A stretch of 64,000 bases of DNA from an uncultured Candidatus Saccharibacteria bacterium. Lineage in GTDB: Bacteria; Patescibacteriota; Minisyncoccia; Phycocordibacterales; UBA9973. Both the position numbers and the translations under genes were made by a program. The notes below the pieces were generated by a model that worked only from the letters and a program-made list of their open reading frames with translations, was not told the origin of the DNA and did no database searches. The DNA lies in the NCBI GenBank assembly GCA_964646765.1, contig CAZYIA010000002.1, positions 99,467 through 163,466 of the forward strand, written 5' to 3'. Numbering within the stretch: the stretch's first letter is position 1; every line of letters begins with the position of its first letter. Below, piece by piece: positions 29,012 through 48,136 of this stretch.

Positions 29012-29048
29012 CAAAAAGTCGAGAGGAGATACCCTCTCGACTTTTTGT
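29012..29048 (+). terminator. Rho-independent terminator after rplB
   Basis: The hairpin gtcgagagg…cctctcgac is followed by TTTTTG. It interrupts the S10 operon, where rpsS would normally follow. Confidence 0.6.
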
Positions 29049-29085
29049 ATTTATGTGGTATTGTAAAAATACAAAATTTACAACA

Positions 29086-29664: not shown

Positions 29665-29715
29665 TACTAAACTGCTCACCCTCCGTCTCCGCGGAGGGTT
29701 TGCTATACTCCAGGG

Positions 29716-30108
29716 ATGGAATCACCAAAAGAAGAGGAAGCTTTTTCTGTAGTAAAGAGAGCACGAAGTTTTACCCATGCTTGGCGCGGATTATGCATTA
29801 TGGTTAAAACGCAGCATAATGCCTGGCTTCATGTATTAGCCGCACTGGTTGCAATTGCTCTTGGTGTATATTTTTCAATCTCTACAACTGAATGGTTTGC
29901 CCTCATTATTTCTATTGGTGTGGTATTAGTGGCTGAAGCGTTTAATACGGCAATTGAAGTTGATATCAATTTAACTTCACCGGAATATCACCCGTTTGCA
30001 CGCGACACCAAAGACATTGCCGCTGGGGCAGTGCTCATTTCAGCCCTCATGGCTCTCACTGTTGGCCTTATGATTTTTTTACCGAGAGTCCTTGAACTTC
30101 TTTCTTAA
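29716..30108 (+). CDS. dgkA: Diacylglycerol kinase / undecaprenol kinase family (DgkA)
   Basis: AWRGLCIMVKTQHNAWLHVLAALVAIALG and AEAFNTAIEVDINL carry the conserved E..NTAIE motif. Three transmembrane helices, about 130 aa. Confidence 0.7.
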   Translation: MESPKEEEAFSVVKRARSFTHAWRGLCIMVKTQHNAWLHVLAALVAIALGVYFSISTTEWFALIISIGVVLVAEAFNTAIEVDINLTSPEYHPFARDTKDIAAGAVLISALMALTVGLMIFLPRVLELLS

Positions 30109-32518: not shown

Positions 32519-32581
32519 GTTGAACCTACTATACTCGCTGTTCGCTTTATCGCCAAACCTGAGTTACTATAGCGAATATCT

Positions 32582-33475
32582 ATGGCACTAGGTTTCCGTG
32601 AAAAACTAAAAGCACGTCAGGAAGAAATCCGAGGCGTACTTTGTGTTGGACTCGACCCACTCCCAGAAAAATTGCCGTCCTCTCTCTCAACCGGCTCACA
32701 TCCTTCACAAACTGCTCACGATATTACGGAGTGGATGAAGGCTATTGTGGACGCTACCGCTCCATACGCCACCATGTTTAAGCCACAGAAAGCTCACTGG
32801 GAGGCATTTGTTGGTGGCGACTATGCGCTTCAAGAAGTGATTACCTACATTCATAAACGCTATCCAGGTATTGTGGTTTTTGAAGACTGTAAACGTGGAG
32901 ATATTGGTCGCACTCAAGAACGATATCGTATGAGTGTCTTTGAATTTGACGGGGCTGATGGCGCTAACTTTTCTCCATACATGGGCCGCGAGTGTATGGA
33001 ATATTTCGTTGATCAAAATCATAAAGAGCGCTCAATTGTTGGACTCTGTTATACGAGTAATCCTTCAGCGCGCGAGATCCAAAATCAAAAATTAGAAAGC
33101 GGAGAATATCTCTGGGAATTTATTGCTAAGCGTACACTTGCGTGGGCAGACGAACTCGGAGTAACCGAAAATGCTGGTCTTGTGATGGCTGCTGCATATG
33201 AAGAAGAAAAGGGATCCGGTAAGATCAAAACTGATCATCTCACTCGTTGTCGCCAAATTGTTGGCGACAAATTCTGGTTCTTAATTCCAGGTGTTGGAAC
33301 CCAAGGTGGTTTTGCTTATGAAACTGTTCAAGCTTCGTTTGCTGGTTTCGGTTCCATTGCGGTGAATTCTTCAAGCGATATCAACTTTGCTTCAAGTGGT
33401 CCTGACTTTGCCGACGCTGCTGCTCAAAAAGCAAAGGAGCTCCATCTAGAGCTCCAGGCTGCATTACCAAACTAG
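32582..33475 (+). CDS. pyrF: Orotidine 5'-phosphate decarboxylase, type 2
   Basis: LCVGLDP near the N-terminus, a length of about 295 aa and KRGDIGRT are typical of the long-form PyrF. Confidence 0.7.
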   Translation: MALGFREKLKARQEEIRGVLCVGLDPLPEKLPSSLSTGSHPSQTAHDITEWMKAIVDATAPYATMFKPQKAHWEAFVGGDYALQEVITYIHKRYPGIVVFEDCKRGDIGRTQERYRMSVFEFDGADGANFSPYMGRECMEYFVDQNHKERSIVGLCYTSNPSAREIQNQKLESGEYLWEFIAKRTLAWADELGVTENAGLVMAAAYEEEKGSGKIKTDHLTRCRQIVGDKFWFLIPGVGTQGGFAYETVQASFAGFGSIAVNSSSDINFASSGPDFADAAAQKAKELHLELQAALPN

Positions 33476-34248
33476 TTTTTTGCCATTGCTTCGCGAAGCG
33501 GCGTCCAGTTATCCTTTGGTTTCCAAATGATATTTCCGGCTTCGATATCGGCTTGTACGGCCGTGTCGTCTTGGCGAAATTCAGGAATAGGGAAGGCAAG
33601 AAGAGCAATAACCTTAAGGGTTATATCGTTTTCACTGTAGATATCGGTCACTTTCGAAGAACGATTCAAAATATCAGTTACGGCAACCGGCACGCCACCT
33701 TTTTCGGTAATGGCAGCAATCGATTTTCCAATAGTTGAGAAGTTAAAAGAAACATCTTCAGAAATAATTACTTTGTCGCCTGGTTCAATGCGATGACGGA
33801 AGAATCCCATCTTCGTTTCTTCGCGCTCTCCGATAGCTGCGGCCTTGGTTACTTTCTTTTCAATGATGGCAAAACGCGTGCCGAGTTCAGCAGCTAAAAA
33901 ATTTCCAATGCCAATGCCGCCCATTTGTGGTCCTGCCACAACATACTGTGCGGCGTGTGTTTCAATATCTGGAATTGCCTCCCGAACTTTTTGAGCAATC
34001 AGTTTTCCGATATATGAAAGAATAGTTGGATACTGTTCAATTTGCGCGCAGTTGATGTAGGTTTCACCAACCCACTGTTTCATTTCACCGTTATCTTCAT
34101 ATGTTCCGGCATAGCCAACTAATGGACCAAGACGCTTTCCGCTCACATCTTTCGGCACGGTGTACATTGCGCCACACGCTTTCAAAATTGCCACCGGGTC
34201 GCCTGGGTTTTTTTCAATGATGGTTTGAAGTTCGTTGGGCGAGAGCAT
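33472..34248 (-). CDS. pyrE: Phosphoribosyltransferase-domain protein, probably orotate phosphoribosyltransferase
   Basis: The PRPP-binding motif is KVIISEDVSFNFSTIGKSI (acidic-hydrophobic followed by a T/G-rich loop). It is convergent with and overlaps pyrF by 4 nt. Confidence 0.55.
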   Translation of the reverse strand: MLSPNELQTIIEKNPGDPVAILKACGAMYTVPKDVSGKRLGPLVGYAGTYEDNGEMKQWVGETYINCAQIEQYPTILSYIGKLIAQKVREAIPDIETHAAQYVVAGPQMGGIGIGNFLAAELGTRFAIIEKKVTKAAAIGEREETKMGFFRHRIEPGDKVIISEDVSFNFSTIGKSIAAITEKGGVPVAVTDILNRSSKVTDIYSENDITLKVIALLAFPIPEFRQDDTAVQADIEAGNIIWKPKDNWTPLREAMAKN

Positions 34249-34307
34249 AGATTTCTACAGGAAACGGTAGCACAGGAGCGGAGTCGGTGCAATTTAGAAG
34301 TCTATAT

Positions 34308-34335
34308 TTGACAATGTTAGACAATCTGCTAATAT
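34308..34335 (+). promoter_or_regulatory. Candidate sigma70-type promoter for rpsS and downstream ribosomal-protein genes (TTGACA, 16 nt, TAATAT)
   Basis: atttgacaatgttagacaatctgctaatatagcc lies about 40 nt upstream of the rpsS start. Confidence 0.45.
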
Positions 34336-34373
34336 AGCCACCACTGGCTCTTTGGAGCCCTTTTATTTACGCC

Positions 34374-34715
34374 ATGACACGATCACTCAAAAAAGGACCA
34401 TATATTGACCCACGCCTCTTGAAAAAGATTGAGGGCAAAGAACCACAAAAGACTGGGGTTATTAAAACCTGGTCACGCGCCTGCCAGATTTCTCCAGAAA
34501 TGATTGGATTCATTTTTGGCGTGCACAATGGTAAGCAACACATCGAAGTTCTTGTTTCTGAAGACATGGTTGGACATCGCTTAGGTGAATTTTCTCCAAC
34601 TCGTAAGTTCAGCAAGCACGGTGGTAAGATGCAAAAGGAACTTGAAGCTAAGAAGAAGGAAGCTGAACTCGCTGCTGCACAGGCTGCTAAGGCTGCTCCT
34701 GCCGATAAGAAATAA
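34374..34715 (+). CDS. rpsS: 30S ribosomal protein S19 (with a Lys/Ala/Glu-rich C-terminal extension)
   Basis: [19 protein letters not shown]...[29 protein letters not shown] matches S19. Confidence 0.9.
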
Positions 34716-34717
34716 TC

Positions 34718-35128
34718 ATGAAAGCTACTCTCTCAAACTATCGTCAAGCTCCACGCAAGGTTCGCCTTGTTGCTACTTCTTTGAAAGGAAAGAAGGTTTC
34801 TGACGCGAGTGTTGCTCTCCGCTTTATGCCAAAGCGTGCTGCTCTTCCACTTTCAAAACTCCTTGCTTCAGCTGTAGCTAACGCCCTCCAAGATTCAAGC
34901 GTTCGTGCAGAAGACTTGATTGTTCGCGAAGTCCGCGTCGACAAAGGAACCAACGCTAAGCGCTGGCTTCCTCGTGCGTTCGGCCGTGCTTCCCGCATAA
35001 ACAAGCGCTCAAGCCACGTTACTATTGTGCTTGGTGTAGCAGAAGGCAAGGCAGAGAAAAAAGCTAAGGCTGTTAAGGCTCCAAAAGCAAAAGCTGTAAA
35101 GAAGACCACTAAGAAAGCCGCGAAATAA
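34718..35128 (+). CDS. rplV: 50S ribosomal protein L22 (with a Lys/Ala-rich C-terminal tail)
   Basis: APRKVRLVATSLKGKKVSDA...KRWLPRAFGRASRINKRSSHVTIVL matches L22. Confidence 0.9.
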   Translation: MKATLSNYRQAPRKVRLVATSLKGKKVSDASVALRFMPKRAALPLSKLLASAVANALQDSSVRAEDLIVREVRVDKGTNAKRWLPRAFGRASRINKRSSHVTIVLGVAEGKAEKKAKAVKAPKAKAVKKTTKKAAK

Positions 35129-35129
35129 T

Positions 35130-35810
35130 ATGTCTAAGAACGTTCATCCATATGCACACCGCCTCGTAATCCTCCGCGACTGGAAAAGCCGCTGGATTGC
35201 TCCAAACCGTAAGTATCAGGAGTTTCTCCGTGCTGACGTTTTGATCCGTGAATTTCTCGCCGAGAAGCTCCGTGGCTTTTATGTTTCTTCTGTAGAAATC
35301 GAGCGCGGTCAGAAAACCACTCGCATCATCCTCCGCACTTCACGCCCAGGAATGCTTATCGGCCGCAACGGTGAAGGTTCTATCAAACTTAAAGCTGATC
35401 TCACTTCTTTCATGAAAAAGAAGAAGATCGCTGTTCCAGAAGATCTCAAGATTGATATCGTTGAAGTTCCAAACGCTGATGCTGATGCTCATGTTGTTGG
35501 CTACGCCATTGCTGAAGCTCTCGAAAAGCGTATGACCTTCCGCCGCGTCATGAAGCAGACCATCGAAAAAGTTATGGCTGTTCGTGGTGTTGAAGGAGTT
35601 CGCATCGTAATGTCAGGCCGCCTTGGTGGTGCTGAAATTGCTCGTACTGAAGAACTCAAGAAAGGTTCAATCCCACTCCAAACATTCCGTGCTGATGTTG
35701 ATTTCGCTCGTGAACGTGCAACTCTTCCATACGGCGTTATCGGTATCAAAGTTTGGATTTACCGCGGTCAGATTTTTAATGATAAGAAAGCAGCCGCACC
35801 TGCTAAGTAA
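35130..35810 (+). CDS. rpsC: 30S ribosomal protein S3
   Basis: A KH domain and the S3 C-terminal domain are present (GVEGVRIVMSGRLGGAEIARTE). Confidence 0.9.
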   Translation: MSKNVHPYAHRLVILRDWKSRWIAPNRKYQEFLRADVLIREFLAEKLRGFYVSSVEIERGQKTTRIILRTSRPGMLIGRNGEGSIKLKADLTSFMKKKKIAVPEDLKIDIVEVPNADADAHVVGYAIAEALEKRMTFRRVMKQTIEKVMAVRGVEGVRIVMSGRLGGAEIARTEELKKGSIPLQTFRADVDFARERATLPYGVIGIKVWIYRGQIFNDKKAAAPAK

Positions 35811-35816
35811 ACCTAT

Positions 35817-36239
35817 ATGCTTATCCCTAAGAAAGTAAAACACCGCAAATGGCAAAGTGGCCGCGCTGGTAAGGAACGAACAGTTCGTCCAGAAACTCGT
35901 GGTATTACACTTGCTTTTGGCTCACACGGTCTCAAAGCTGAAACTCAGGCTCGCATCCGTTCAAACCAGCTCGAGGCTGCTCGAAAGGCTCTTACTCGCC
36001 AGCTTACTAAAGTTGGTAAAGTATGGATTCGTGTGTTCCCAGACCGACCATATACTCAGAAAGGTGCACAGGTGCCGATGGGTAAGGGTAAAGGAGATCT
36101 TCAGGGATACTGTTTTGATGTTCGCCCAGGCCGCATCCTCTTTGAAGTTGATGGTGTTGATGAGAAGACTGCTCGCGAAGCACTTCGCAAAGCAGGTACG
36201 AAGCTTCCAGTTAAAGTCCGCATTATCTCACGTGCGTAA
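35817..36239 (+). CDS. rplP: 50S ribosomal protein L16
   Basis: MLIPKKVKHRKWQSGRAGK... matches the L16 N-terminus and length. Confidence 0.9.
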   Translation: MLIPKKVKHRKWQSGRAGKERTVRPETRGITLAFGSHGLKAETQARIRSNQLEAARKALTRQLTKVGKVWIRVFPDRPYTQKGAQVPMGKGKGDLQGYCFDVRPGRILFEVDGVDEKTAREALRKAGTKLPVKVRIISRA

Positions 36240-36248
36240 GAGTTTTGT

Positions 36249-36449
36249 ATGAAGAAGAAAGTAAACTTTACTGATCTCAATACGACTGATCTCAAAGACA
36301 AGCTCGCAGAAGCTCGCAAAGCAGTTCACACAGCTTCGATGGCTCTCGCTGGCGTTCGTGGCAAAAGCTTAAAAGAAGCTCGCGTTGCGAAGAAAACTGT
36401 TGCCCAGATCATGACCGAGCTCACTAAGCGCACAAAGGCAAACGCATAA
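36249..36449 (+). CDS. rpmC: 50S ribosomal protein L29
   Basis: The 66-aa protein has the L29 pattern [20 protein letters not shown]. The position is conserved. Confidence 0.8.
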
Positions 36450-36454
36450 CCTAT

Positions 36455-36706
36455 ATGACAAAGAACAAAGTACAAAACAAAACAGTAAAGACTTGGAAAG
36501 GCGTTGTTGTCTCTGACAAAATGGACAAGACCGTTGTTGTTCGTGTTGACCGCTACGTGAAGCACGCAAAGTACAAGAAGTACTACACCATTTCAAAGAA
36601 CTACAAAGCTCATGATCCAGAAAACAAAGCTAAGGTAGGCGACACTGTTACCATCAAAGAAACGAAGCCAATGTCGAAAGACAAGCGGTTTGCGGTAGTG
36701 TTTTAA
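36455..36706 (+). CDS. rpsQ: 30S ribosomal protein S17
   Basis: [32 protein letters not shown]...[18 protein letters not shown] matches S17. Confidence 0.9.
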
Positions 36707-36709
36707 TAT

Positions 36710-37081
36710 ATGATTCAACCTCGCTCAATCGTAAAAATTACAGACAACGCTGGTGGTAAAGTAGGCCGCGTATTTAAAGTACTCGGTGGTTCAAAGAAGC
36801 GCTACGCTTCAATTGGTGAACTCGTCGTTATCTCTGTACAGATTGCTGAACCTCGCAAAGGCGTAAAGAAGAAGGATGTTCACCGTGCAGTTGTCGTTCG
36901 TCAGCGTAATGCGTTCCGCCGCAAGGACGGTTCATACATTCGCTTTGACGACAACGCAGTAGTGATCCTCGAAAAGGACAAGCCAGAACCAAAAGCTGGT
37001 CGCGTATTCGGTCCGATTCCACGTGAAGTTGGTGAAGCTGGCTACCAGAAAATTATTTCCCTCGCACCGGAAGTTCTCTAA
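36710..37081 (+). CDS. rplN: 50S ribosomal protein L14
   Basis: [44 protein letters not shown] matches L14. Confidence 0.92.
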
Positions 37082-37091
37082 GAGTTTGTAT

Positions 37092-37391
37092 ATGCATATC
37101 AAGAAAGGAGACAACGTAATAGTAAAAACCGGTAAGGATAAGGGTAAGAAGGGCTCAGTGCTCCGTATCATGGGTGATCGCGTTCTCGTAGAAGGCGTTA
37201 ACATGGTAAAGAAGCACCAAAAGCCTCGCCGAAGTGGTGAAGCTGGTCAGATTCTCGATGTTGGTCGCTCAGTCCACATTTCAAACGTATCACCAGTTGA
37301 TCCAAAGACAGGCAAAGCTACACGCGTTGGTTCAAAAATGATCAGCGGCAAAAAAGTTCGCATTGCTAAGAAGAGCGGACAGGAGTTCTAG
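37092..37391 (+). CDS. rplX: 50S ribosomal protein L24
   Basis: [26 protein letters not shown] matches the L24 (KOW) signature. The start was moved from the listed 37023 to the Met after the rplN stop. Confidence 0.85.
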
Positions 37392-37392
37392 T

Positions 37393-37932
37393 ATGATTTC
37401 AGTTAAAGAAAAAGCAGAAAAAGCATTTGAGACGATGAAAGGTTCGTTCGGCTACAAAAACAAAATGGCCGCACCAAAACTCAAGAAAGTAGTTGTTTCA
37501 GTTGGTACTGGTAGCGCAATGAAGCGCGACAATAAGCGCAACGATTTCGTTCTCGGACGCCTCGCAAACATTACTGGCCAGAAGCCAGCAACTCGCCAGG
37601 CTAAGAAGTCAGTGGCATCATTCAAAATTCGTCAAGGTGATCCAATCGGTGTTGCGGTTACTCTCCGTGGTGCTCGCATGTACGCGTTCCTCGACAAGCT
37701 CTTCAATATTGCACTTCCTCGAACCAAAGACTTCCGTGGAATTGATGCAAAAGTTGTTGATGATATCGGAAACGTAACGCTTCCAATTAAAGAGCACACA
37801 ATCTTCCCAGAAACTGCTGATGAAGAATTGAAAGACGTGTTCTCTCTCGGAATCACTATCGTTACTTCTGCAAAGGATAAAAAAGAAGCAACTAAATTCT
37901 TCGAACTCATTGGCGTTCCGTTCAAAAAATAA
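37393..37932 (+). CDS. rplE: 50S ribosomal protein L5
   Basis: The protein has PKLKKVVVSVGTGSAMKRDNKR and RGARMYAFLDKLFNIALPRTKDFRG. The start was moved to MISVKEKAEK. Confidence 0.88.
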   Translation: MISVKEKAEKAFETMKGSFGYKNKMAAPKLKKVVVSVGTGSAMKRDNKRNDFVLGRLANITGQKPATRQAKKSVASFKIRQGDPIGVAVTLRGARMYAFLDKLFNIALPRTKDFRGIDAKVVDDIGNVTLPIKEHTIFPETADEELKDVFSLGITIVTSAKDKKEATKFFELIGVPFKK

Positions 37933-38062: not shown

Positions 38063-38542
38063 ATGAACACTGCAGCTCCAAAAATTTTGGGCGAGGACTT
38101 TAACCTTGCCGATGTAACCAATTTCTTCACTACTAACAATATGGCTATCGGCAATGATATCCGTACATTGTTAGGGAATATCGCTCGTTCCCCGGAGATT
38201 TATACCAAACCGGACACTGACGCCTTCAATCATTTCCTCTCTAAACCCGTTCAATCGCATGAGCAGGTATTGGGAGAACTTACTGATTGCGAAAAGGTGT
38301 TAGCTATCGGTTCTGTATATGGAACCAGTAACATCGAGCCGCTGCGTAAATTTTTGCGCAAAAATGATTCCAGCCACCCTGACTATTTTGAAAAGGAAAA
38401 AGAGTGTCTGCTGATTAAGCCCCGCCAGGAGCTTTTGAAAGGACACCTGATTACCTCAATTGCTGACCGGTTTAAAGGTCAGATTCAGGGACGCCCGATT
38501 GAAATCCGTGAAGGCTGGCAAGTTGTTGTGCTGCCTCATTAA
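38063..38542 (+). CDS. Hypothetical protein (159 aa) inserted in the spc operon
   Basis: The ORF is clean and followed by a 13-bp-stem hairpin (agccccgcaatac…gtatttgcggggct). I noticed more CTG (Leu) and CCG (Pro) codons than in neighbouring genes. Confidence 0.4.
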   Translation: MNTAAPKILGEDFNLADVTNFFTTNNMAIGNDIRTLLGNIARSPEIYTKPDTDAFNHFLSKPVQSHEQVLGELTDCEKVLAIGSVYGTSNIEPLRKFLRKNDSSHPDYFEKEKECLLIKPRQELLKGHLITSIADRFKGQIQGRPIEIREGWQVVVLPH

Positions 38543-38635
38543 CAAACGGTTACCGTTAAAAAAACAAGCCCCGCAATACCTTAAAAGTATTTGCGGGGCT
38601 AGTTTATTTATGGGGAGACATGCTATTGTTCCTCC

Positions 38636-39244
38636 ATGCAGAAAAAGGAACGTCTTGGTTTTAATATTGTTTTGCTTGGGCAAATTGCCGCTGGAAAAGA
38701 AACACAGGCGGCACTTCTTATGGAAAAATACGCTCTCCATCCTGTTGAATCAGGAAAGTACTGGCGTACGATGATGAAGGCTAAAACTAAAGAAGGGGAA
38801 TGGCTCCGTCGTACAACCGCCAAAGGACTGCCGGCTCCAGTATCACTGATGAAAAAATTCCTTGTTGAACGTATTAACAAAAAACCAAAAAATAAAGACC
38901 TTCTCTTTATTGGTAACCCACGATTGAAGCCGGAAGCCCAGCTTTTAAAAAAGTTGTTAGCAGCAAAGAAACAAGATTTCTTTGCGCTCTATATCTCACT
39001 TCCTGATAAGGAAATATATAATCGATCGCTCAAGCGAAAAGAAGGTGCCGGTAAGGCAATTTACAAAGTGCTTGATGAAAAGCACCTTATTGCTGCGCGT
39101 ATTAAATGGCATAAAGACCAGGTTGGTAAGACCGTGGCCTACTTTGATTCTCTCGGTAAATTAAAAAAAATTAACGGCAAACAAAGCATTGAAAAGGTGG
39201 CTGCTGATATTGAAAAAGCTATCGCTCAAGCTCGAAAAGCCTAA
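38636..39244 (+). CDS. Adenylate-kinase-like nucleoside-monophosphate kinase paralog with a variant P-loop (GKETQ instead of GKGTQ)
   Basis: The protein has FNIVLLGQIAAGKETQAALLMEKY, and its length and LID-like region match the adk family. The canonical adk is at 43325..43921. Confidence 0.5.
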   Translation: MQKKERLGFNIVLLGQIAAGKETQAALLMEKYALHPVESGKYWRTMMKAKTKEGEWLRRTTAKGLPAPVSLMKKFLVERINKKPKNKDLLFIGNPRLKPEAQLLKKLLAAKKQDFFALYISLPDKEIYNRSLKRKEGAGKAIYKVLDEKHLIAARIKWHKDQVGKTVAYFDSLGKLKKINGKQSIEKVAADIEKAIAQARKA

Positions 39245-39245
39245 A

Positions 39246-39276
39246 TTGACTTTTCGCCATTTCCTGATACTATAAT
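39246..39276 (+). promoter_or_regulatory. Candidate promoter (TTGACT, about 19 nt, perfect TATAAT) for rpsN and the distal spc genes
   Basis: aattgacttttcgccatttcctgatactataatgcc. A 7-bp-stem hairpin with a large loop (tcctgcc…ggcaggg followed by a T-rich tract) lies between it and rpsN. Confidence 0.4.
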
Positions 39277-39412
39277 GCCTAGGCACCTGTTACGGTTCCC
39301 AGTCCGTTTTTCTCCTTTAGATTACGCCTCGTTCCTGCCGAGCGCTGTAGCATAAAGAATAAAAACGCGATACTGGATCCTGGCAGGGGGCTTTTATTAA
39401 GTATTTTCTAGT

Positions 39413-39598
39413 ATGGCAAAAACATCAACGTACGTACGTTCTCAAAAAAAGCCCAAGTTCTCATCTCGGGCTAAGAACCGCTGCTTTCGCTGCGGTCGTG
39501 GTCGTGGTTTTATGCGTGATTTCGGACTCTGTCGTATTTGCTTCCGCGAGTTAGCAAACGAAGGAATGATTCCGGGCGTCCGCAAATCATCTTGGTAG
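39413..39598 (+). CDS. rpsN: 30S ribosomal protein S14, zinc-binding type Z (61 aa)
   Basis: [61 protein letters not shown] carries the Z-type C..C...C..C signature. Confidence 0.9.
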
Positions 39599-39617: not shown

Positions 39618-40004
39618 ATGGATCCAATTTCCAACATGGCAATCGCCTTAAAAAACGCTTCTCTTGCTTCACACGAAAGCATCACTGTGCCTTTTTCAAA
39701 GGTAAAGCTTGCTCTCGCAGAAGCTCTCGAGAAAGCTGGTTTCGTTAAGGCCGTTGCAAAAAAAACAAAGAAGAACCTCCAGGTTCTCGAAGTTACCCTC
39801 GCTTATACGAATGGCAAGCCAAAGATTAGTGGCGTTGAGCGTGTTTCAAAACCGTCTCGCCGTCTCTATATCAATACTCGGGCAATGAAAAAGCCGCTCG
39901 GTGGCGTTGGTACTGAATTTATTTCCACCCCGAAAGGGATTTTGACTAGTCGCGAGGCTCACCTCGAACACGTCGGCGGCGAAGTTATGCTTAAAGTTTG
40001 GTAA
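39618..40004 (+). CDS. rpsH: 30S ribosomal protein S8
   Basis: DPISNMAIALKNASLASHESITVPFSKVKLALAEALEKAGFV matches S8. Confidence 0.9.
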   Translation: MDPISNMAIALKNASLASHESITVPFSKVKLALAEALEKAGFVKAVAKKTKKNLQVLEVTLAYTNGKPKISGVERVSKPSRRLYINTRAMKKPLGGVGTEFISTPKGILTSREAHLEHVGGEVMLKVW

Positions 40005-40008
40005 CTAT

Positions 40009-40542
40009 ATGTCACGAGTTGGTAAACAAGTTATAACAATTCCATCTGGTACTGAGGTTAAACTCGACAATGGAATGGTTTCAGTGAAAGGTCCAAAAGG
40101 AACTCTCACTCGTCCGGTGCTCGACAATGTGGTTATCACCATTGAAGGCACAACCGTTCGCTTTGAACCAAAGCGCAACGATGGTTTCACAAAAGCTCTT
40201 TGGGGAACCTATGCTTCGCACGTCAAAAATATGATCGCTGGTGTGAACACCCCGTTCGTTAAGAAACTCATTCTCGAAGGTGTTGGTTTCAAGAGCGATG
40301 TGAAAGGAAAGAATCTCGAGCTTGCGCTTGGTTTCTCTCACCCAGTATCAGTAGCAATTCCTGAAGGTCTTACCGTGACCGCAGAAAAGAACCTCATCAC
40401 AATCACTGGAGTCGACAAGGAAAGTGTTGGTCAGTATGCGGCAAAGATCCGCGCACTCAAGAAGCCAGAACCATATAAGGGTAAAGGTTTTCGCTACGAC
40501 ACTGAAGTTATTCGCCGCAAGCAGGGTAAGAAAACTGCATAG
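40009..40542 (+). CDS. rplF: 50S ribosomal protein L6
   Basis: MSRVGKQVITIPSGTEVKLDNGMVSVKGPKGTL with a two-domain length matches L6. Confidence 0.9.
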   Translation: MSRVGKQVITIPSGTEVKLDNGMVSVKGPKGTLTRPVLDNVVITIEGTTVRFEPKRNDGFTKALWGTYASHVKNMIAGVNTPFVKKLILEGVGFKSDVKGKNLELALGFSHPVSVAIPEGLTVTAEKNLITITGVDKESVGQYAAKIRALKKPEPYKGKGFRYDTEVIRRKQGKKTA

Positions 40543-40545: not shown

Positions 40546-40896
40546 ATGAAAGCAACTAACAAACAAAACGAAAAGCGTTCACGACTCAAGGCAAAGATCC
40601 GCGCAAAAGTGTTTGGAACACAGGAGCGCCCACGCCTTTCAGTCTATCGCTCAAATAAATTCATTTACGCTCAAATCATTAACGACGACATGGGCAAGAC
40701 TCTTGTTTCTGCTTCTGATGTTTCAACAACGAAGGGAACAAAGATTGAACGTGCTGAAAAAGTTGGTACTGATATTGCAGCTGCCGCAAGTGCAAAAGGT
40801 ATCAAAGCAGTTGTCTTCGATCGTAACGGATTCAAGTATATTGGTCGCATTAAACTTCTCGCTGACGCCGCTCGCAAGGCCGGTTTAGTTTTCTAA
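40546..40896 (+). CDS. rplR: 50S ribosomal protein L18
   Basis: [28 protein letters not shown]...[25 protein letters not shown] matches L18. Confidence 0.9.
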
Positions 40897-40900: not shown

Positions 40901-41548
40901 ATGGATACTCCTACAACAACAAATGCTGCTTCGGCTACCGGAGCACAGAAGCCTCGACCAGCAAACGATCGTCGCCGTCCAGGTGGTCCTCGTGGCCAAG
41001 GTGGTCCACGCCGTGGTGGTGATCGAGGTGGTAATCGCCCAAACTTTGAGCGCCCTCGACCAGAATTTGAACAAAAAATGCTCGCTGTTCGCCGCGTAAC
41101 CCGTGTGGTTGCTGGTGGACGCCGCATGTCATTTGCTATCGCACTCGCGATTGGTGACAAAAAAGGTTCAATCGGTCTCGGTACTGGTAAAGCTGGTGAT
41201 ACTTCACTCGCTATCAACAAAGCAGTTCGTGATGCAAAGAAAAATCTCATTCGCATCAAGACCACTAAGAATTTTTCAATTCCTCAGGTTGTGTCTGCTA
41301 AGTATGGCAGTGCTGAAGTAATGATTATGCCTAACCGTGGTAAAGGTCTTGTGGCTGGTTCTGCAGTTCGTGATCTTCTCTCTCTCGCTGGTATTAAAGA
41401 CACTACTTCAAAAGTGCTCACTGGTTCGAAAAACAAGTTAAACATTGCTCGCGCAACTATGCTCGCGCTCTCTCGCATTGCGGACAAGAAAACTTCTTTC
41501 CCGATGACTGAACAGAAAGCGTTCGTTGCTGATGCTCCAGCAGAGTAA
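40901..41548 (+). CDS. rpsE: 30S ribosomal protein S5 (with an Arg/Gly-rich N-terminal extension)
   Basis: RRVTRVVAGGRRMSFAIALAIGDKKGSIGLGTGKAGDTSLAINKAVRDAKKNLIRI matches the S5 dsRBD and C-terminal domain. Confidence 0.9.
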   Translation: MDTPTTTNAASATGAQKPRPANDRRRPGGPRGQGGPRRGGDRGGNRPNFERPRPEFEQKMLAVRRVTRVVAGGRRMSFAIALAIGDKKGSIGLGTGKAGDTSLAINKAVRDAKKNLIRIKTTKNFSIPQVVSAKYGSAEVMIMPNRGKGLVAGSAVRDLLSLAGIKDTTSKVLTGSKNKLNIARATMLALSRIADKKTSFPMTEQKAFVADAPAE

Positions 41549-41553
41549 ACTTT

Positions 41554-41985
41554 ATGCAAACTCACTCACTTAAACGAAATCATCCAAACAAGGACGCAAA
41601 GCGCGTTGGTCGCGGTGGCCGATTTGGAAAGACTTCTGGCCGCGGTACAAAAGGTCAGAACGCTCGCGCAGGTCGCAAGAAGTGGCCTGAACTCCGCACC
41701 ATCATTAAGCGTTTACCAAAACTTCGTGGTTACCGTTTCAATTCAATCCACGACAAGCCTCTTACCGTAAATCTTATTGCTCTCGAAGCTGCTTTCAAGG
41801 CAGGAGAAACGGTTACTCCGGTAACACTTCGTGAACGTGGTGTTATTAAGAACACCAAGAGCACTGGCGCACAGGTTAAAATTCTTGCGACTGGTGACAT
41901 TACCAAAGCACTCACCGTTTCAGGCTGCACGCTTTCTGAGACTGCCAAGGAGAAAATTACGAAAGCTGGTGGTACTGTTAAGTAA
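41554..41985 (+). CDS. rplO: 50S ribosomal protein L15
   Basis: VGRGGRFGKTSGRGTKGQNARAGR matches the L15 N-terminus. It follows rpsE directly, with no rpmD (L30) between them. Confidence 0.9.
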   Translation: MQTHSLKRNHPNKDAKRVGRGGRFGKTSGRGTKGQNARAGRKKWPELRTIIKRLPKLRGYRFNSIHDKPLTVNLIALEAAFKAGETVTPVTLRERGVIKNTKSTGAQVKILATGDITKALTVSGCTLSETAKEKITKAGGTVK

Positions 41986-41991: not shown

Positions 41992-43266
41992 ATGAACTCA
42001 CTTATTCAAAAGATAAAGACAGTTTTCACGGATGCTTCGATTCGTCGTCGTGTTATCGTGGTACTTCTTTCCCTCGTTGTCTTCCGACTGCTTGCGTCGA
42101 TTCCAGTTCCTGGTATTGATGCAAATCGTTTGGCAGCATTCCTCGCTAATAACCAGTTTCTCGGTATCTTAAACATCTTCTCAGGTGGTGGACTTTCAAA
42201 CCTTTCGGTGATCATGCTCGGTGTTGGTCCGTACATTACGGCTTCCATCGTGCTTCAACTCCTCACGATTATGGTGCCATCACTTAAGCGTCTCTACCAA
42301 GAAGAAGGTGAAGCTGGCCGCAAGAAATTTGCCCAGTACTCACGTCTTCTTACAGTACCGCTTGCTGCTGTTCAAGGATTTTCCCTCATGACCATTCTTG
42401 AACGACAGGGAATTCTGGTTAGCCCAGATCTCTTTCACAAGTTTGTAACCCTCGCGGTTATCATTGGGGGCTCACTACTCCTTATGTGGATTGGAGAACT
42501 TGCTACTGAATTTGGTATTGCAAACGGTGTCTCGCTTATTATCTTTGCTGGTATCGTTGCTCGTCTTCCTCGTGAAGTTGGACAACTTCTCTTTACCTTC
42601 GATGCTTCGCAGATTCCGCAGTACATCGTATTCCTTTTGGTTGCTGCTCTCCTTATTCTTGGAGTGGTTATCGTTACTGAAGCGGAACGTCCAATTCCAG
42701 TAACGTATGCTCGCCGAGTTACGGCAACAGGACGCGCAACAGGTGGTGTCTCAACATACCTTCCAATTCGCGTGAACCAGGCTGGTGTGATGCCAATCAT
42801 CTTTGCGCTTTCACTCCTCCTCATTCCGCAGCTTCTTGGAACCCTTCTGTCGAATAATGCGCATGCATCTCTCCAAGCAATTGGTCATACACTCGCACTA
42901 TTCACTCAGAATACTTGGGGCTATCTTGTTGCCTACTTCGTTCTCGTGTTTGTCTTTACCTACTTCTATACAGCGATTACTTTCGAACCACATCAGCTCG
43001 CTGAAAATCTTCAGAAAGGTGGTGCGTTCGTTCCAGGTATTCGCCCAGGTAACGATACCGAGCAGTACGTTGGCAACATTGTTTCTCGCATTACCTTTAT
43101 TGGTGCGCTCTTCCTCGGTGTTATTGCGATCTTGCCACTTCTCATGCAGAAGTTAACTGGCATCACCGCAATTGCAGTCGGTGGCACAGCGCTCCTCATC
43201 GTAGTGTCTGTTGTGCTTGATTTCTTGAAACGAATCGACGCTCAGCTTGCGATGCGCGAGTACTAA
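41992..43266 (+). CDS. secY: Preprotein translocase subunit SecY
   Basis: Ten transmembrane helices are present, and the protein has GIDANRLAAFL, FSGGGLSNLSVIMLGVGPYITASIVLQLL and IPGIRPG. Confidence 0.92.
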   Translation: MNSLIQKIKTVFTDASIRRRVIVVLLSLVVFRLLASIPVPGIDANRLAAFLANNQFLGILNIFSGGGLSNLSVIMLGVGPYITASIVLQLLTIMVPSLKRLYQEEGEAGRKKFAQYSRLLTVPLAAVQGFSLMTILERQGILVSPDLFHKFVTLAVIIGGSLLLMWIGELATEFGIANGVSLIIFAGIVARLPREVGQLLFTFDASQIPQYIVFLLVAALLILGVVIVTEAERPIPVTYARRVTATGRATGGVSTYLPIRVNQAGVMPIIFALSLLLIPQLLGTLLSNNAHASLQAIGHTLALFTQNTWGYLVAYFVLVFVFTYFYTAITFEPHQLAENLQKGGAFVPGIRPGNDTEQYVGNIVSRITFIGALFLGVIAILPLLMQKLTGITAIAVGGTALLIVVSVVLDFLKRIDAQLAMREY

Positions 43267-43288
43267 ATTCTTCTCGAAAGGATTAAAA

Positions 43289-43316
43289 ACAGCCTGCTTT
43301 CGCAGGCTGTTTTTGT
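43289..43316 (+). terminator. Rho-independent terminator between secY and adk
   Basis: aaacagcctgctttcgcaggctgttttt. Confidence 0.55.
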
Positions 43317-43324: not shown

Positions 43325-43921
43325 ATGGCTCGTATGAATCCTAAAACCTATGTATTTTTCGGTAATGTTGGTGCCGGAAAGGGAACCCAGATTGAACGCC
43401 TCCAGAAATACCTTAAGGAAAAAACTGGCCAAGATACAGCATACGCGTATCCAGGCGGAGAGTTTCGGAAACTCATTGGTGGAACAGGTTATACCTCGTC
43501 GTTGGTAAAAGATATTTTGAGCGCTGGGAAATTAGTACCGATGTTCCTGGTTTCGTGGGTTATTGGCAATGTTCTAGTTGAAAAACTTACCAGCCCTGAC
43601 ATGCATGTAATTTTTGACGGTTTCCCACGATCACTCGATCAGGTAATTGCTTTTGAATCGACGCTCGATTTGTATAAGCGTACAAATGTTGAACTTGTCT
43701 ATATCGAAGTGCCGAAAGAGGAAGTGATTAAACGCATGAAGCTACGCGGTCGTTTTGATGACACCGATGAAGGTATTGCTCAGCGTTTTTCGGAGTATGA
43801 AAACAATGTACTTCCTGCATTAAATCTTTTGAAAGAAAAGGGATACCCAGTACATACGATTCATGGAGCTCAGAGTATTGAAGAAGTATTTGCTGATCTC
43901 GTTAAAGCGCTCAATGTGTAA
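43325..43921 (+). CDS. adk: Adenylate kinase
   Basis: MARMNPKTYVFFGNVGAGKGTQ carries the canonical GxxGxGKGTQ P-loop. The start was moved from the listed TTG at 43247 to the ATG after the terminator. Canonical position after secY. Confidence 0.8.
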   Translation: MARMNPKTYVFFGNVGAGKGTQIERLQKYLKEKTGQDTAYAYPGGEFRKLIGGTGYTSSLVKDILSAGKLVPMFLVSWVIGNVLVEKLTSPDMHVIFDGFPRSLDQVIAFESTLDLYKRTNVELVYIEVPKEEVIKRMKLRGRFDDTDEGIAQRFSEYENNVLPALNLLKEKGYPVHTIHGAQSIEEVFADLVKALNV

Positions 43922-43923: not shown

Positions 43924-44604
43924 ATGAATAATCGCACCATCATCTCTCTCGGCGGTTCACTCGTAGTACCAAACGGTATCGATACCGAATTTTTGTCTAC
44001 GTTTGTTTCGCTTATAAAAAAAGAAGCAGAGAATGGTAAAGAATTTTCGATTGTGGTTGGTGGTGGCAAAGTGGCGCGTGATTACCGCGACGCACTTACT
44101 GCTCTTGGAGTTTCAGATAACGATATCCTTGATTGGCAGGGGATTTACGCCACACGATTGAATGCCGAGCTCGTTCGCCTCGCATTTGGTGAAACTGCTG
44201 AACCAGAAATTTTTCTTGAACCAGCGCAAGCTAGTTTTAAAACTAAGCGTATTCTCATTGGCGGCGGCTGGAAGCCAGGTCACTCAAGTGATGGTGCTGC
44301 TGTTGGCCTTGCAGAAGCACTTAAAGCGGGAACACTCATTAATCTTTCAAATATCGACTACGTCTACACTGATGACCCTCGCAAAAATCCTGAAGCCACA
44401 CCAATCGAAAAAATTAGTTGGGCAGAGTTTCGAAAGTTACTACCAACAGAGTGGAATCCTGGTGTGAATGCACCATTTGATCCAGTTGCCGCACAGATGG
44501 CCGAAAAAATTGGTCTTACTGTTGTGGTGATGAATGGCAAAAATTTGAATAATCTTAAAGCGTACCTTTCTGGCGAGCAGTTTATTGGTACGGTCATTTC
44601 TTAG
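43924..44604 (+). CDS. pyrH: Uridylate (UMP) kinase, short archaeal/CPR-type amino-acid-kinase fold
   Basis: IISLGGSLVVPNG...IVVGGGKVARDY...ILIGGGWKPGHSSDGAAV is the amino-acid-kinase family pattern. The length is about 225 aa. Confidence 0.65.
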   Translation: MNNRTIISLGGSLVVPNGIDTEFLSTFVSLIKKEAENGKEFSIVVGGGKVARDYRDALTALGVSDNDILDWQGIYATRLNAELVRLAFGETAEPEIFLEPAQASFKTKRILIGGGWKPGHSSDGAAVGLAEALKAGTLINLSNIDYVYTDDPRKNPEATPIEKISWAEFRKLLPTEWNPGVNAPFDPVAAQMAEKIGLTVVVMNGKNLNNLKAYLSGEQFIGTVIS

Positions 44605-45397: not shown

Positions 45398-48136
45398 ATG
45401 GAAAGTTTCCCGCAAGCGTCCAAATTTAAAACGGCTGAAGAAGAGCTCGCTTTTTTGCGTGCTCATATTGCTGAACGCGAACAAAAATCTGCTGAGATGG
45501 GCACAGGCGGTGGCAGTGAAAAAGCAGCGGAAGCCACACTTGAAGCATACAAGCGTGCTGACGCTGCAGAAGTGCTTCATGAAGCTGCGAAATTGCCGGA
45601 GCATCAGGTTGAACAATTAGTTCTTAATTTAAAACCTGAAACACACGATCGCCAGATGGAAGAGCTTCTCGGGATTCTTCTTGAGAATGGTATTAAGAAC
45701 GCCCTTGATGTAGTTGAGGCTATGCAGAACCCGCACTTAACCGATGATTTTCATCGTTTTCTAGTGCAGTACCTTGTAAGTACCAACGGTATTCCAGGAC
45801 TAAAAGAATCGCATCCACTTTGGAAAGGAGTGAATATGAAGCTTTTTGAAATTACCCTTCCTGAACAAGGAAAAGATGAAGCAAAGGGCTACAAAGAATT
45901 TATTGCCGCTATGGAGCAATTTTACGCTGGCATGCTCTCCGCTGGCGGAACTGACAATCCAAACCGTAAATACTACACCCTTGAAATCGCGGTTAATAAT
46001 AAGTCACCGCAAATCATGTTCTATGCTGCGGTGCCGAATGAAAAAGTAGATCTCTTTGAAAAACAGGTTCTTGGTTTCTACGAAGATGCAAAAGTAAAAG
46101 AAATTTCTGACGACTACAATATTTTTACTGAAGGTGGTGAAGCCGCTGGTTCATATGCCAAGCTTGGGGAAGTAGAAGTATTTCCACTGAAAATGCATGA
46201 TGAACTCGAGCACGACCCGATGAAGGCTATCATCAATGCCTTTTCAAAATTGAAGGATGAAGGTGAAGGTGCTGCTATTCAGTTTATGGTAGTTCCTGCG
46301 GGGGAACGACTAGTAAAGCAATTTTCTAATGTCCTCTGGCGAGTGAAAGAGGAAAAACTTCGAGCTCGAGAAGCTCTTAAGCTTTCAAACTCAATTGGCC
46401 GGGAAGTATTTCACCTGGCCAAACAGTTTGTAAAACCAACTTCCAAAGAGCGTCTTGAACAAAAAGGCCGCGCAAATGAAAAAGATATTGAAAATATCAC
46501 TAATAAGTTAAAAAGCACTGTTGTTGATGTTGCTGTTCGAGTAGTTGCTTCAGCTGCTACTCGTGAACGAGCGAAAGACATTTTGCGTGAAATTGAATCA
46601 GCATTCTATCAATTCTCAAATCCAACTGCGAACCATATTGAATGGGAACGTGTTGAAGGGCGTCGGGCAAGCGAACTCTTCCAAGAATTTTCATATCGTA
46701 TGTTCAATGAGGAAGAGCGCATGTCGCTTAATCTTCGCGAACTTGCCTCACTTTTTCATTTCCCAATTGGTATTTCTTCTTCACCTGAACTCAAGCAAGC
46801 TAAGGCTGCAACTGCTCCAGTGCCACTGGAAATGAAGGCTGACGCCGGCGGTATTTTCTTAGGTACCAATGAGCATCGTGGTGGATCGAAGAAAGTATTT
46901 ATGGGCAAAGAAGATCGCCGTCGTCACTTCTATGCTATTGGTCAAACCGGTACTGGTAAGACAACCATTTTGAAGCACATGATCATTCAAGATATTCAGA
47001 ATGGTGACGGAGTGTGTTTCATCGATCCGCATGGTTCTGATCTCCAGGACATTATTGCCAATATTCCAAAAGAGCGTATCGACGATGTTATTTACTTTGA
47101 TCCGGCGTACATTGCTCGGCCAATGGGGCTAAACATGTTGGAATACGATCCACGATACCCAGAACAAAAAACCTTCGTGGTGAACGAGCTTTTGGCTATT
47201 TTTAATAAGCTCTTCGATATGAAAACGGCCGGTGGCCCAGCGTTTGAACAGTACTTCCGTAACTCGTCGCTTTTGGTTATGGAAGATCCAGCATCTGGTT
47301 CAACGCTCCTGGAAATCGGTCGCGTGCTCGCGGATAAAGAATTCCGCGATCTCAAACTTTCTCGTTGTAAAAACCCAATCATCAAACAATTTTGGGAAAA
47401 TGCTGAAAAAACATCGGGCGAACAATCATTGGCAAACTTCGTACCATACGTTACCAACAAGTTCGATGTGTTCGTTTCAAACGACATCATGCGTCCGGTT
47501 ATTGCTCAGGAAAAGTCCGTATTCAATTTCCGTGAGATTATGGATAATCGCAAGATCCTTCTCGTGAATCTTTCGAAAGGCCGTTTGGGTGATATTAACT
47601 CAAACCTTATTGGTCTCATTTTGGTTGGAAAGCTTACGATGGCGGCGCTTTCTCGTGTCGATATTTTAGGCAAACAAGAAGTGCACGATTTTTACCTCTA
47701 CATCGACGAATTTCAGAACGTCACAACCGACTCCATCGCAACAATCCTTTCCGAAGCCCGCAAATACCGCCTGTGTTTGAATATCGCCCATCAATATATC
47801 GAACAGCTTGATGAGAAGATCAAAAATGCCGTCTTTGGAAACGTGGGATCGATGGCCATCCACCGTGTTTCGGTGGAGAATGCGGAGGTGTTCGCTAAAC
47901 AGCTTGAACCGACATTCACTGCAGAAGATATCATTAAACTCGAGAACCTTAATTGTTACATAAAGATGCTGGTGAACGGCATGCCGGTAAAACCATTCAA
48001 CTCGAAAACACCGTTTCCGCCGAAGGGTAATCCAGAGCTTGCTGAAAAGATTAAAGAGCTTTCGTACCTCAAATTCGGGCGAGATCGGGAAGAAGTGGAA
48101 AGTGAAATCATGGCCCGCTACGTTCAGCAGTTCTAA
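45398..48136 (+). CDS. Large soluble P-loop ATPase of the VirD4/TraG/TrwB coupling-protein superfamily (ATPase domain in the C-terminal half; about 450-aa N-terminal domain of unknown function, no transmembrane segments)
   Basis: Walker A is HFYAIGQTGTGKTT, followed by CFIDPHGSD. Walker B is LYIDEFQN. The region SEARKYRLCLNIAHQYIEQL resembles the TraG-D_C motif. Confidence 0.6.
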   Translation: MESFPQASKFKTAEEELAFLRAHIAEREQKSAEMGTGGGSEKAAEATLEAYKRADAAEVLHEAAKLPEHQVEQLVLNLKPETHDRQMEELLGILLENGIKNALDVVEAMQNPHLTDDFHRFLVQYLVSTNGIPGLKESHPLWKGVNMKLFEITLPEQGKDEAKGYKEFIAAMEQFYAGMLSAGGTDNPNRKYYTLEIAVNNKSPQIMFYAAVPNEKVDLFEKQVLGFYEDAKVKEISDDYNIFTEGGEAAGSYAKLGEVEVFPLKMHDELEHDPMKAIINAFSKLKDEGEGAAIQFMVVPAGERLVKQFSNVLWRVKEEKLRAREALKLSNSIGREVFHLAKQFVKPTSKERLEQKGRANEKDIENITNKLKSTVVDVAVRVVASAATRERAKDILREIESAFYQFSNPTANHIEWERVEGRRASELFQEFSYRMFNEEERMSLNLRELASLFHFPIGISSSPELKQAKAATAPVPLEMKADAGGIFLGTNEHRGGSKKVFMGKEDRRRHFYAIGQTGTGKTTILKHMIIQDIQNGDGVCFIDPHGSDLQDIIANIPKERIDDVIYFDPAYIARPMGLNMLEYDPRYPEQKTFVVNELLAIFNKLFDMKTAGGPAFEQYFRNSSLLVMEDPASGSTLLEIGRVLADKEFRDLKLSRCKNPIIKQFWENAEKTSGEQSLANFVPYVTNKFDVFVSNDIMRPVIAQEKSVFNFREIMDNRKILLVNLSKGRLGDINSNLIGLILVGKLTMAALSRVDILGKQEVHDFYLYIDEFQNVTTDSIATILSEARKYRLCLNIAHQYIEQLDEKIKNAVFGNVGSMAIHRVSVENAEVFAKQLEPTFTAEDIIKLENLNCYIKMLVNGMPVKPFNSKTPFPPKGNPELAEKIKELSYLKFGRDREEVESEIMARYVQQF

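Follow-up and report, generated by a model that had tools for sequence, protein, structure and literature searches.

The 64-kb stretch of DNA analysed here (contig CAZYIA010000002.1, positions 99,467 to 163,466; hereafter the window) carries what is, judged from the proteins it encodes, the str–S10–spc ribosomal protein cluster of a member of the Paceibacteria (Parcubacteria/OD1, near Ca. Nomurabacteria), within the candidate phyla radiation (CPR). In this cluster the gene for ribosomal protein S5 (rpsE) abuts the gene for L15 (rplO) with no L30 gene (rpmD) between them, the genes appear to be divided into separate transcription units with cargo genes at their boundaries, and the unit holding rpsE and rplO is preceded by a conserved, structured leader RNA that resembles an S8-binding site. 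Taken as a whole, this combination of a CPR cluster, L30 loss, re-partitioned units, cargo-bearing boundaries and a putative S8-type leader is in our view the best explanation of the window, and we regard it as likely. The junction from which the analysis started is as follows.

40901-41548, + strand: rpsE (S5), 215 amino acids (aa); Pfam S5 N- and C-terminal domains at residues 56-195; NCBIfam rpsE_bact
41549-41553, + strand: spacer of 5 nucleotides (nt) between the rpsE stop and the rplO start, the usual place of rpmD (L30) in most bacteria
41554-41985, + strand: rplO (L15), 143 aa; Pfam Ribosomal_L27A; NCBIfam rplO_bact

Absence of rpmD at this junction, which had been claimed in an earlier note made from the sequence alone, is borne out, and it represents the lineage-wide loss of L30 already described for the CPR. 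The identity of the flanking genes is well supported for S5 (Pfam Ribosomal_S5 N-terminal domain E 1e-20, C-terminal domain E 8e-18; NCBIfam rpsE_bact 136 bits) and passes the family cut-off for L15 (Pfam Ribosomal_L27A E 1e-14; NCBIfam rplO_bact 82.2 bits against a cut-off of 77.95); L18, SecY and S14 next to them were likewise recognised by Pfam. L30 was sought in the window and in 72 loci with E. coli, B. subtilis and T. thermophilus sequences, used both in tblastn and as a three-sequence hidden Markov model (HMM) with no CPR member. Neither search gave a significant match in any of the six frames of the window (lowest E 0.17 for tblastn and 0.72 for the HMM), and a Pfam search of its 10 unassigned small open reading frames (ORFs) gave no Ribosomal_L30 match at E≤1. 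Nor was L30 found in six-frame translations of ∼70 related loci (∼1 Mb), a set in which no locus contains L30 and which hence offers no proper positive control. The aligned gap between rpsE and rplO is at most 137 nt in every related locus carrying both genes, and the loci labelled Mycoplasma and 'Bdellovibrionales' are likewise without L30. Fusion of L30 to S5 or L15 was considered and rejected, as 40901-41985 is without L30-like similarity. Five contigs of independent assemblies, among them Logan SRR11845633 and SRR6837583 and an NCBI contig of 281 kb, carry an identical S5 protein in an unchanged gene order, and therefore the arrangement is not an assembly artefact. This is consistent with previous reports that all CPR bacteria are without L30 and have adjacent S5 and L15 genes (Brown et al. 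2015; Tsurumaki et al. 2022, bioRxiv 10.1101/2022.01.07.475337), so that the trait is indeed a recognised one, as the earlier note had it.

Placement of the window within the CPR draws on several comparisons. A scan of one genome per species yielded 70 related loci, the nearest with an S5 identity of 65%; nearly all bear the label Nomurabacteria, Paceibacteria(ota) or Parcubacteria, with a coarse 'Saccharibacteria' label on some third-party annotation records, and the ∼60 nearest genome loci are Nomurabacteria/Paceibacteria. In a search for S5 homologues among 5.8 billion proteins, where only named entries were used for taxonomy, the best named matches are Paceibacterota/Parcubacteria, with one labelled Omnitrophota. 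A neighbour-joining tree of 13 concatenated proteins (2107 columns, 50 loci) places the window inside the Nomurabacteria/Paceibacteria clade as sister to the Ca. Nomurabacteria metagenome-assembled genome Ike-100m-32, and the Moranbacteria-type, other Patescibacteria and Mycoplasma-labelled loci outside that clade; its references are the loci retrieved as relatives, and it thus speaks to placement within the CPR rather than across all phyla. Subgroups of the CPR are also without L1 or L9, and rRNA introns and a small genome are further traits of the radiation; rplA, rplI and the rRNA genes are not in the window. One further locus (L068) has 'uncultured Bdellovibrionales' as its label; in the tree it pairs closely with a Moraniibacteriota locus, and it is without L30. 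Mislabelling or mis-binning of a CPR contig is the probable explanation.

The terminal extensions noted earlier on S10, S19, L22 and S5 are confirmed when measured from Pfam domain limits: 21 aa at the N-terminus of S10, an A/K-rich 31 aa at the C-terminus of S19 (the Pfam domain stops at residue 82 of 113), a K/A-rich 31 aa at the C-terminus of L22 and an R/G/P-rich 55 aa at the N-terminus of S5. An A/K-rich C-terminal region of ∼25 aa on S19 has been published as Parcubacteria-specific, and the window S19 carries such a tail. The earlier view that these features together place the contig in the CPR stands on ribosomal similarity, the concatenated tree and the S19 tail; the missing L30, a published CPR trait, is not diagnostic alone.

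The cluster had also been described as broken four times by terminators and foreign blocks (rpsG/fusA, fusA/tuf, rplB/rpsS, rplE/rpsN). The breaks and the terminator-like sites exist, and there are more than four of them, an extra terminator following secY and the alpha-operon genes being missing after map, but most of the intervening blocks are not foreign. The predicted boundary elements and the units that they delimit are listed here.

16911-16934: weaker terminator-like hairpin after rpsG
21725-21751: terminator-like hairpin and T run after fusA
24598-24627: terminator-like hairpin and T run after the 876-aa gene
24660-24688, + strand: promoter-like TTGACA-17-TAGTAT before tuf
24881-29000, + strand: unit tuf-rpsJ-rplC-rplD-rplW-rplB
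29012-29047: terminator-like hairpin and T run after rplB
34308-34335, + strand: promoter-like TTGACA-16-TAATAT before rpsS, conserved in relatives
34346-34359, + strand: short 5' hairpin before rpsS, conserved in relatives
34374-37932, + strand: unit rpsS-rplV-rpsC-rplP-rpmC-rpsQ-rplN-rplX-rplE
37938-37973, + strand: intrinsic-terminator-like hairpin after rplE, a 16-bp stem and T run, 6 nt past the stop
38567-38610, + strand: terminator-like hairpin after the 159-aa ORF
39246-39273, + strand: promoter-like TTGACT-16-TACTAT before the rpsN leader, with TG upstream of the -10, directly 3' of the adk-like gene
39413-39598, + strand: rpsN, type Z S14 (NCBIfam), first gene of the unit holding rpsE and rplO
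39618-40004, + strand: rpsH (S8), second gene of the rpsN-secY unit
40009-40542, + strand: rplF, rpsN-secY unit
40546-40896, + strand: rplR, rpsN-secY unit
41992-43266, + strand: secY
43285-43315, + strand: terminator-like hairpin after secY
43325-43921, + strand: adk, after the secY terminator

These boundaries recur in relatives. With a simple detector of a hairpin followed by a T run, scored in the 90 nt 3' of each stop codon, terminator-like sites were found after rplB (21 of 26 relatives), rplE (37 of 47) and secY (42 of 53), that is in ∼80%, with none after 12 other cluster genes and three among 61 after rplO. Near-consensus promoters of the form TTGACA-N17-TGCTAGTAT lie upstream of rpsS and rpsN in relatives, and a match to TTGACN-N15-19-TRNNWT ends 16-26 nt before the core of the rpsN leader in 44 of 54. 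The distance from rplB to rpsS is 151-3563 nt in the clade versus 25-57 nt in four outgroup loci, and that from rplE to rpsN is 144-3556 nt versus 4-54 nt. Moranbacteria-type and other 'Patescibacteria group' loci have tight junctions at both places, and fragmentation is therefore not a general CPR trait. These comparisons of sequence indicate that the rplB/rpsS and rplE/rpsN breaks are clade-wide operon boundaries, not lesions peculiar to this contig, and that the cluster has been re-partitioned in the clade into the predicted units tuf–rplB, rpsS–rplE, rpsN–secY and adk onwards. Each unit would end at an intrinsic terminator and start at a consensus sigma-70-type promoter, a pattern of transcription that we infer from these sites. 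A literature search found no paper on operon fragmentation in Parcubacteria.

Two of the putative 5' regions have hairpins of their own. The hairpin upstream of rpsS (window 34336-34373; loci L003-L067) has the consensus GAGCUC-N4-GAGCUU, with GGCUC-UUUG-GAGCC in the window, followed by an A/U-rich tail, and could be a 5' stabiliser or a second leader. Upstream of tuf is a leader of 190 nt (24689-24880) in which a hairpin and T run (24690-24717) directly follow the promoter-like site, an arrangement that suggests an attenuator.

Non-ribosomal genes occupy the spacers, as given below.

16951-18243 and 18256-19464 (starts approximate for the first), + strand: two paralogous membrane-anchored tail-fibre-like proteins
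21944-24574, + strand: 876-aa secreted protein with a C-terminal sorting domain of the type IX secretion system (T9SS), between fusA and tuf
29001-34373, both strands: rplB/rpsS block, ∼5.4 kb, with two minus-strand genes
∼29086-29664, + strand: membrane ORF, rplB/rpsS block
29716-30108, + strand: dagK, rplB/rpsS block
30068-32518, - strand: MurL-MurD fusion, rplB/rpsS block
32582-33475, + strand: pyrF, rplB/rpsS block
33472-34248, - strand: pyrE-like phosphoribosyltransferase (PRTase), rplB/rpsS block
38063-38542, + strand: 159-aa ORF with no family match, rplE/rpsN spacer
38636-39244, + strand: adenylate-kinase-like nucleoside monophosphate kinase, rplE/rpsN spacer; 25% identical to canonical adk

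The cargo consists largely of nucleotide-metabolism housekeeping genes. Between rplB and rpsS, dagK is present in most relatives, and pyrF and/or the PRTase in several. The rplE/rpsN spacer is a hot spot of cargo turnover: in three pairs of loci (L030/L041, L058/L055 and L036/L067) the flanks are 90-99% identical in DNA while the interiors are unrelated and of different length, the differing interior extending from just past the rplE stop to ∼150-160 nt before rpsN. The 61 ORFs of at least 100 aa found at this position match 43 Pfam families, with any one family in at most 4 ORFs; they include Cu-oxidase_4, nucleotidyl transferases, NUDIX proteins, kinases, methyltransferases and one Gp49/HTH_3 toxin-antitoxin-like pair. 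The earlier suggestion of a permissive insertion site is thus supported at rplE/rpsN, where near-identical genomes carry unrelated cargo. The non-coding boundaries between units tolerate gene gain and loss, with stable cargo (dagK) at one and rapidly changing cargo at the other (rplE/rpsN). An apparent identity of 67% between the 159-aa ORF and an ORF of locus L025 was discarded as a forced-alignment artefact, tblastn having found no homologue.

The rpsG/fusA spacer holds two ORFs (16819-19464). Each of these paralogues has an N-terminal membrane helix; its tail-fibre-like repeats lead into a GGGG linker and then into a conserved C-terminal domain, and Pfam gave no match. The fusA/tuf spacer holds one 876-aa ORF, whose sorting domain is of the type Por_Secre_tail, and this protein looks to be the sole foreign-looking block. 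Its homologues are almost only from Bacteroidota; besides these there are a copy with 100% identity from a second run and an orthologue with 61%, the contig of which has the order 399-aa protein, fusA, T9SS-tail gene and the start of another gene. CPR bacteria are expected to be without an outer membrane and without a T9SS. An assembly chimera was considered and rejected, as an independent run repeats the order fusA-gene-tuf and the 61% orthologue has the same neighbours. From its sequence the gene looks like an old horizontal acquisition fixed at fusA/tuf, and its source may have been a Bacteroidota neighbour or host.

In the clade, the constant 150-160 nt 5' of rpsN contain the promoter and a conserved motif, which in the window forms part of the leader mapped here.

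39281-39394, + strand: structured 5' leader of the rpsN-secY unit; covariance-model match at 39297-39378
A39301-C39304 (AGUC) opposite G39369-G39376 (GAUACUGG), + strand: leader core
39305-39311 with 39361-39367, + strand: leader helix P2
39315-39320 with 39352-39357, + strand: leader helix P3
∼39281-39299 with 39377-39394, + strand: outer helix P0

The motif has the consensus GATCCGTTTGTCTCCTTAAG, a variable hairpin and TTTAAGAAAATAAACGAGATATC. In a plain MAFFT alignment, unfitted and made from 42 distinct sequences, the proposed P1, P2 and P3 have standard pairs in 96.5% of cells, versus 36-55% when the partner strand is slid by 1-3 columns; compensatory changes are present at 12 of 17 pairs (88 cells), and the covariation score was reached by none of 500 shuffles. 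An independent RNAalifold prediction recovers P2 and P3, the U-A and C-G pairs of the core and two more pairs that covary. The duplex energy of P0 is better than that of shuffled controls in 46 of 50 loci (Wilcoxon p ∼5e-12); U runs near P0 are expected by chance in so A/T-rich a region. A covariance model gave one significant plus-strand match in the window (49 bits) and one in each of 55 clade loci, including two (L014 and L049) outside the training set; the outgroups, E. coli 16S rRNA and the remainder of the 1.1 Mb gave no match.

The association of the leader with rpsN is also seen when the search does not depend on the genes. A degenerate pattern of the leader RNA alone gave at least 120 matches among public metagenome contigs; 80 contigs were fetched, and rpsN is the next gene in all 77 that could be tested, at 14-145 nt from the end of the motif to its ATG (median 46). 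The distance from rplE to the leader in these contigs varies from 68 to 4757 nt. No terminator-like site lies between the leader and secY, and rpsN and then rpsH are the genes that follow the leader. No Rfam 15 family matches it, the best E-value-mode match in 39200-39450 being noise (preQ1-II, 14.7 bits against a threshold of 47); a published set of 20 ribosomal-leader candidates contains none for S8, S14 or the CPR (PMC7247131), and a literature search found no paper on a CPR ribosomal leader. The leader appears to be undescribed, and to be the sole such element in the window's cluster.

The core of the leader resembles the S8-binding site of 16S rRNA. In helix 21 this site comprises the pairs C599-G639 and U598-A640, unpaired U641 and A642, the pairs G597-C643 and A596-U644 and a bulged 595; its conserved loop consists of seven phylogenetically conserved nucleotides, of which A642 is invariant, and the site is reused in the operator of the E. 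coli spc mRNA (PMC4176348). The leader has invariant columns U7, C8 and A86-U87-A88, with G85 deviating in one of the 42 sequences, and these invariant or near-invariant columns correspond to U598, C599, G639, A640, U641 and A642 of the S8 site. The flanking pairs covary: pair 5-90 is G-C in 33 and A-U in 9 sequences, and pair 6-89 is A-U in 40 and G-C in 2. In E. coli 16S rRNA the strands are UAAGUCAG at 594-601 and CUGAUACUGG at 637-646, and their counterparts in the window leader are CCCAGUCCG and CGCGAUACUGG; over AGUC and the 8 nt of the opposite core strand the window leader is identical to E. coli 596-599 and 639-646. In the basal locus L034, AATCCGCAA...TTTGCGCGATATT (core and P2) is kept and the interior replaced, and because of this the core is suggested to be the most constrained part. 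S8 autoregulation of the spc operon is established for E. coli (Cerretti et al. 1988; Merianos et al. 2004; summarised in PMC4176348), and by analogy the leader is probably an S8 autoregulatory mimic.

How these readings fare against their alternatives differs from part to part. The absence of L30 has been established over the 64-kb window and not a complete genome, the cluster is already scattered to the extent that alpha-operon genes do not follow map, and the HMM was small and built from three non-CPR sequences, all of which leaves room for an L30 gene elsewhere in the genome, outside the spc cluster; with L30 in none of the 69 complete CPR genomes covered by literature survey, and none in the related loci or among the small ORFs of the window, we consider this very improbable. 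The loss of L30 in Mollicutes, Halanaerobiales and several endosymbionts, because of which it is not diagnostic by itself, would equally allow a reduced non-CPR bacterium, a Mollicute or an endosymbiont with an independent loss, but the close homologues are all Paceibacteria/Nomurabacteria, the tree distance from the window is 0.61 to the Mycoplasma-labelled locus against 0.29 to Ca. Nomurabacteria, and the Parcubacteria-specific S19 tail is present, so that we give this alternative almost no credence. The view taken in the earlier note, that the four breaks are recent foreign or mobile insertions into an intact super-operon and peculiar to this contig, draws on the Bacteroidota affinity of the T9SS-tail protein (identity ≤35%), on the fact that neither the 159-aa ORF nor the adk-like gene was found at rplE/rpsN in the locus of any other species, and on the G+C of the rplB/rpsS block (0.40, against 0.47-0.50 in the flanking ribosomal genes). 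It is unlikely, since dagK, pyrF and the PRTase recur at rplB/rpsS across the clade, the terminators and promoters of the junctions are kept in ∼80% of relatives, the T9SS-tail gene keeps its context in the species with the 61% orthologue and is hence not recent, its G+C (0.44) equals the window mean, and no integrase or transposase is found among the 25 commonest of the cargo Pfam families.

Several points weigh against S8 as the ligand of the leader. The register of the core is ambiguous, RNAalifold pairing column 6 with 87 and not with 89; the G-C form of pair 6-89 is confined to the window and the sister locus and is possibly one evolutionary event, and most leaders have A-U where rRNA has G597-C643. 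A 1-nt bulge (column 84) is not in helix 21, nor is there a counterpart there for the second conserved loop, CUCC/AAA, or for the nearly invariant P3 (CUUAAG/UUUAAG). The S8 proteins of the clade, including that of a Kaiserbacteria-labelled locus, carry STPKG at a motif that reads STSKG or STSQG in other bacteria; the residue of this motif that contacts A642 of 16S rRNA in E. coli is the third (PMC4176348). The leader ends well before the start codon, and the mode of control would thus not be exactly that of E. coli. In addition, the free energy of the window leader is not exceptional alone (z = -1.4), its likeness was judged against helix 21 of E. coli, and the promoters and terminators that frame it are predicted from consensus matches. 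The second loop with P3, the ambiguous register and the unusual S8 motif would suit a leader that is real but recognised by something other than S8, be it S14, L6, L18, S5, L15 or a metabolite, or by nothing, as a 5' stabiliser or attenuator. We regard this as a tentative alternative, and a less probable one: against it stand the match of the invariant or near-invariant U, C / G, A, U, A and the 2-nt asymmetric bulge to the S8 site, the identity of the window leader to E. coli helix 21 over 4 + 8 nt and the retention of core and P2 in L034 with the rest replaced, and S8 regulates these same genes in E. coli (PMC4176348).

Our results suggest a mechanism for how an S8-responsive leader may have arisen and how it may work. 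The scenario to which we give slightly better than even credence is that the spc operon was split at rplE/rpsN in an ancestor of the Nomurabacteria-like Paceibacteria, and that the split was followed by a new S8-responsive leader, an independent mimic of helix 21, with a cargo hot spot before it. The rpsN–secY unit would have its own structured leader because the fission parted rpsH (S8) from rplE. The invariant asymmetric loop of the leader would copy the S8-binding site of helix 21, and excess free S8 would most likely bind this mimic and lower the synthesis of S14, S8, L6, L18, S5, L15 and SecY, as in the E. coli spc mRNA. Repression might work at the level of translation, or else through a more stable long P0-P4 hairpin upstream of a U-rich stretch.

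If this is true, no autoregulatory RNA of a ribosomal protein would have been described from the CPR before, and the leader would exemplify convergent mimicry of rRNA. The missing L30 only confirms a known trait. Gene regulation in the CPR is almost unexplored, and a candidate regulatory RNA that covaries strongly and is specific to one clade of bacteria not amenable to culture offers, with its testable RNA–protein feedback loop, a useful entry point. It also appears that a single lineage can divide an ultra-conserved cluster anew into different operons, the boundaries of which then become landing pads for genes; this has consequences for binning and for phylogenomic workflows in which the ribosomal block is taken to be contiguous.

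The remaining genes of the cluster are as follows.

15835-16260, + strand: rpsL
16271-16741, + strand: rpsG
19559-21709, + strand: fusA
43924-44604, + strand: archaeal-type pyrH
ends at 45376, + strand: map

Instead of infA, rpmJ, rpsM, rpsK, rpsD, rpoA and rplQ, map is followed by a 912-aa DUF8128/TraD-like ATPase, Maf, CYTH, NDK and further genes. The DUF8128 protein (45398-48136, + strand) has weak similarity to TraD/TrwB coupling-protein ATPases and occupies the same position in most relatives. The UMP kinase at 43924-44604 matches the archaeal-type model TIGR02076 with 196 bits, above its cut-off, and not bacterial pyrH, and its position is likewise kept in most relatives. In the rplB/rpsS block, the MurL-MurD fusion (816 aa) has a UDP-MurNAc-L-Ala-L-Glu epimerase of MurL type at residues 6-408 and a ligase of MurD type at residues 438-785; the MurL and MurD2 of Xanthomonas are two distinct proteins. 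An 878-aa protein (52088-54724, + strand) carries the intramolecular chaperone domain of phage endosialidases and tail fibres (Peptidase_S74) and is the third tail-fibre-like surface protein in the window. In two relatives, rpsL-rpsG-fusA lies downstream of map and not upstream of tuf (L050, 15991-17276; L059, 7684-10903), with rpsG and fusA adjacent; the str operon has thus moved within the clade. No Rfam family was found in the window at gathering thresholds, and a tRNA scan of it was empty.

Compared with known systems, the window is the same as the published cases of uL30 loss in the CPR, with no rpmD, adjacent S5 and L15 genes and an A/K-rich S19 tail, and nothing differs. As in the E. 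coli S10, spc and alpha operons, a conserved gene order is cut into several units by promoters and terminators; the boundaries in E. coli lie between rpsQ and rplN and between secY/rpmJ and rpsM, whereas here they would be at rplB/rpsS, rplE/rpsN and secY/adk, and the spacers hold non-ribosomal genes. With the r-leaders identified by comparative genomics (Eckert and Weinberg 2020, PMC7247131), the leader shares a covarying structure in the 5' untranslated region (UTR) of a ribosomal protein operon and resemblance to the rRNA site of an encoded protein, but none of the 20 candidates concerns S8, S14 or the CPR, and no Rfam 15 family matches it. Unlike the S8 operator of the E. coli spc mRNA, which overlaps the start of rplE, the leader here lies in the 5' UTR before rpsN, with rplE in another unit, stands inside a longer P0-P4 hairpin with the second conserved loop, and is limited to the Paceibacteria clade, with no detectable homology to a known RNA family. 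What it has in common with that operator is a helix with an asymmetric internal loop and the conserved nucleotides 595-599/639-644, namely U598, C599/G639, A640, U641 and A642 with the flanking 596-644 and 597-643 pairs, and a place on the putative mRNA that encodes S8 and the distal spc genes.

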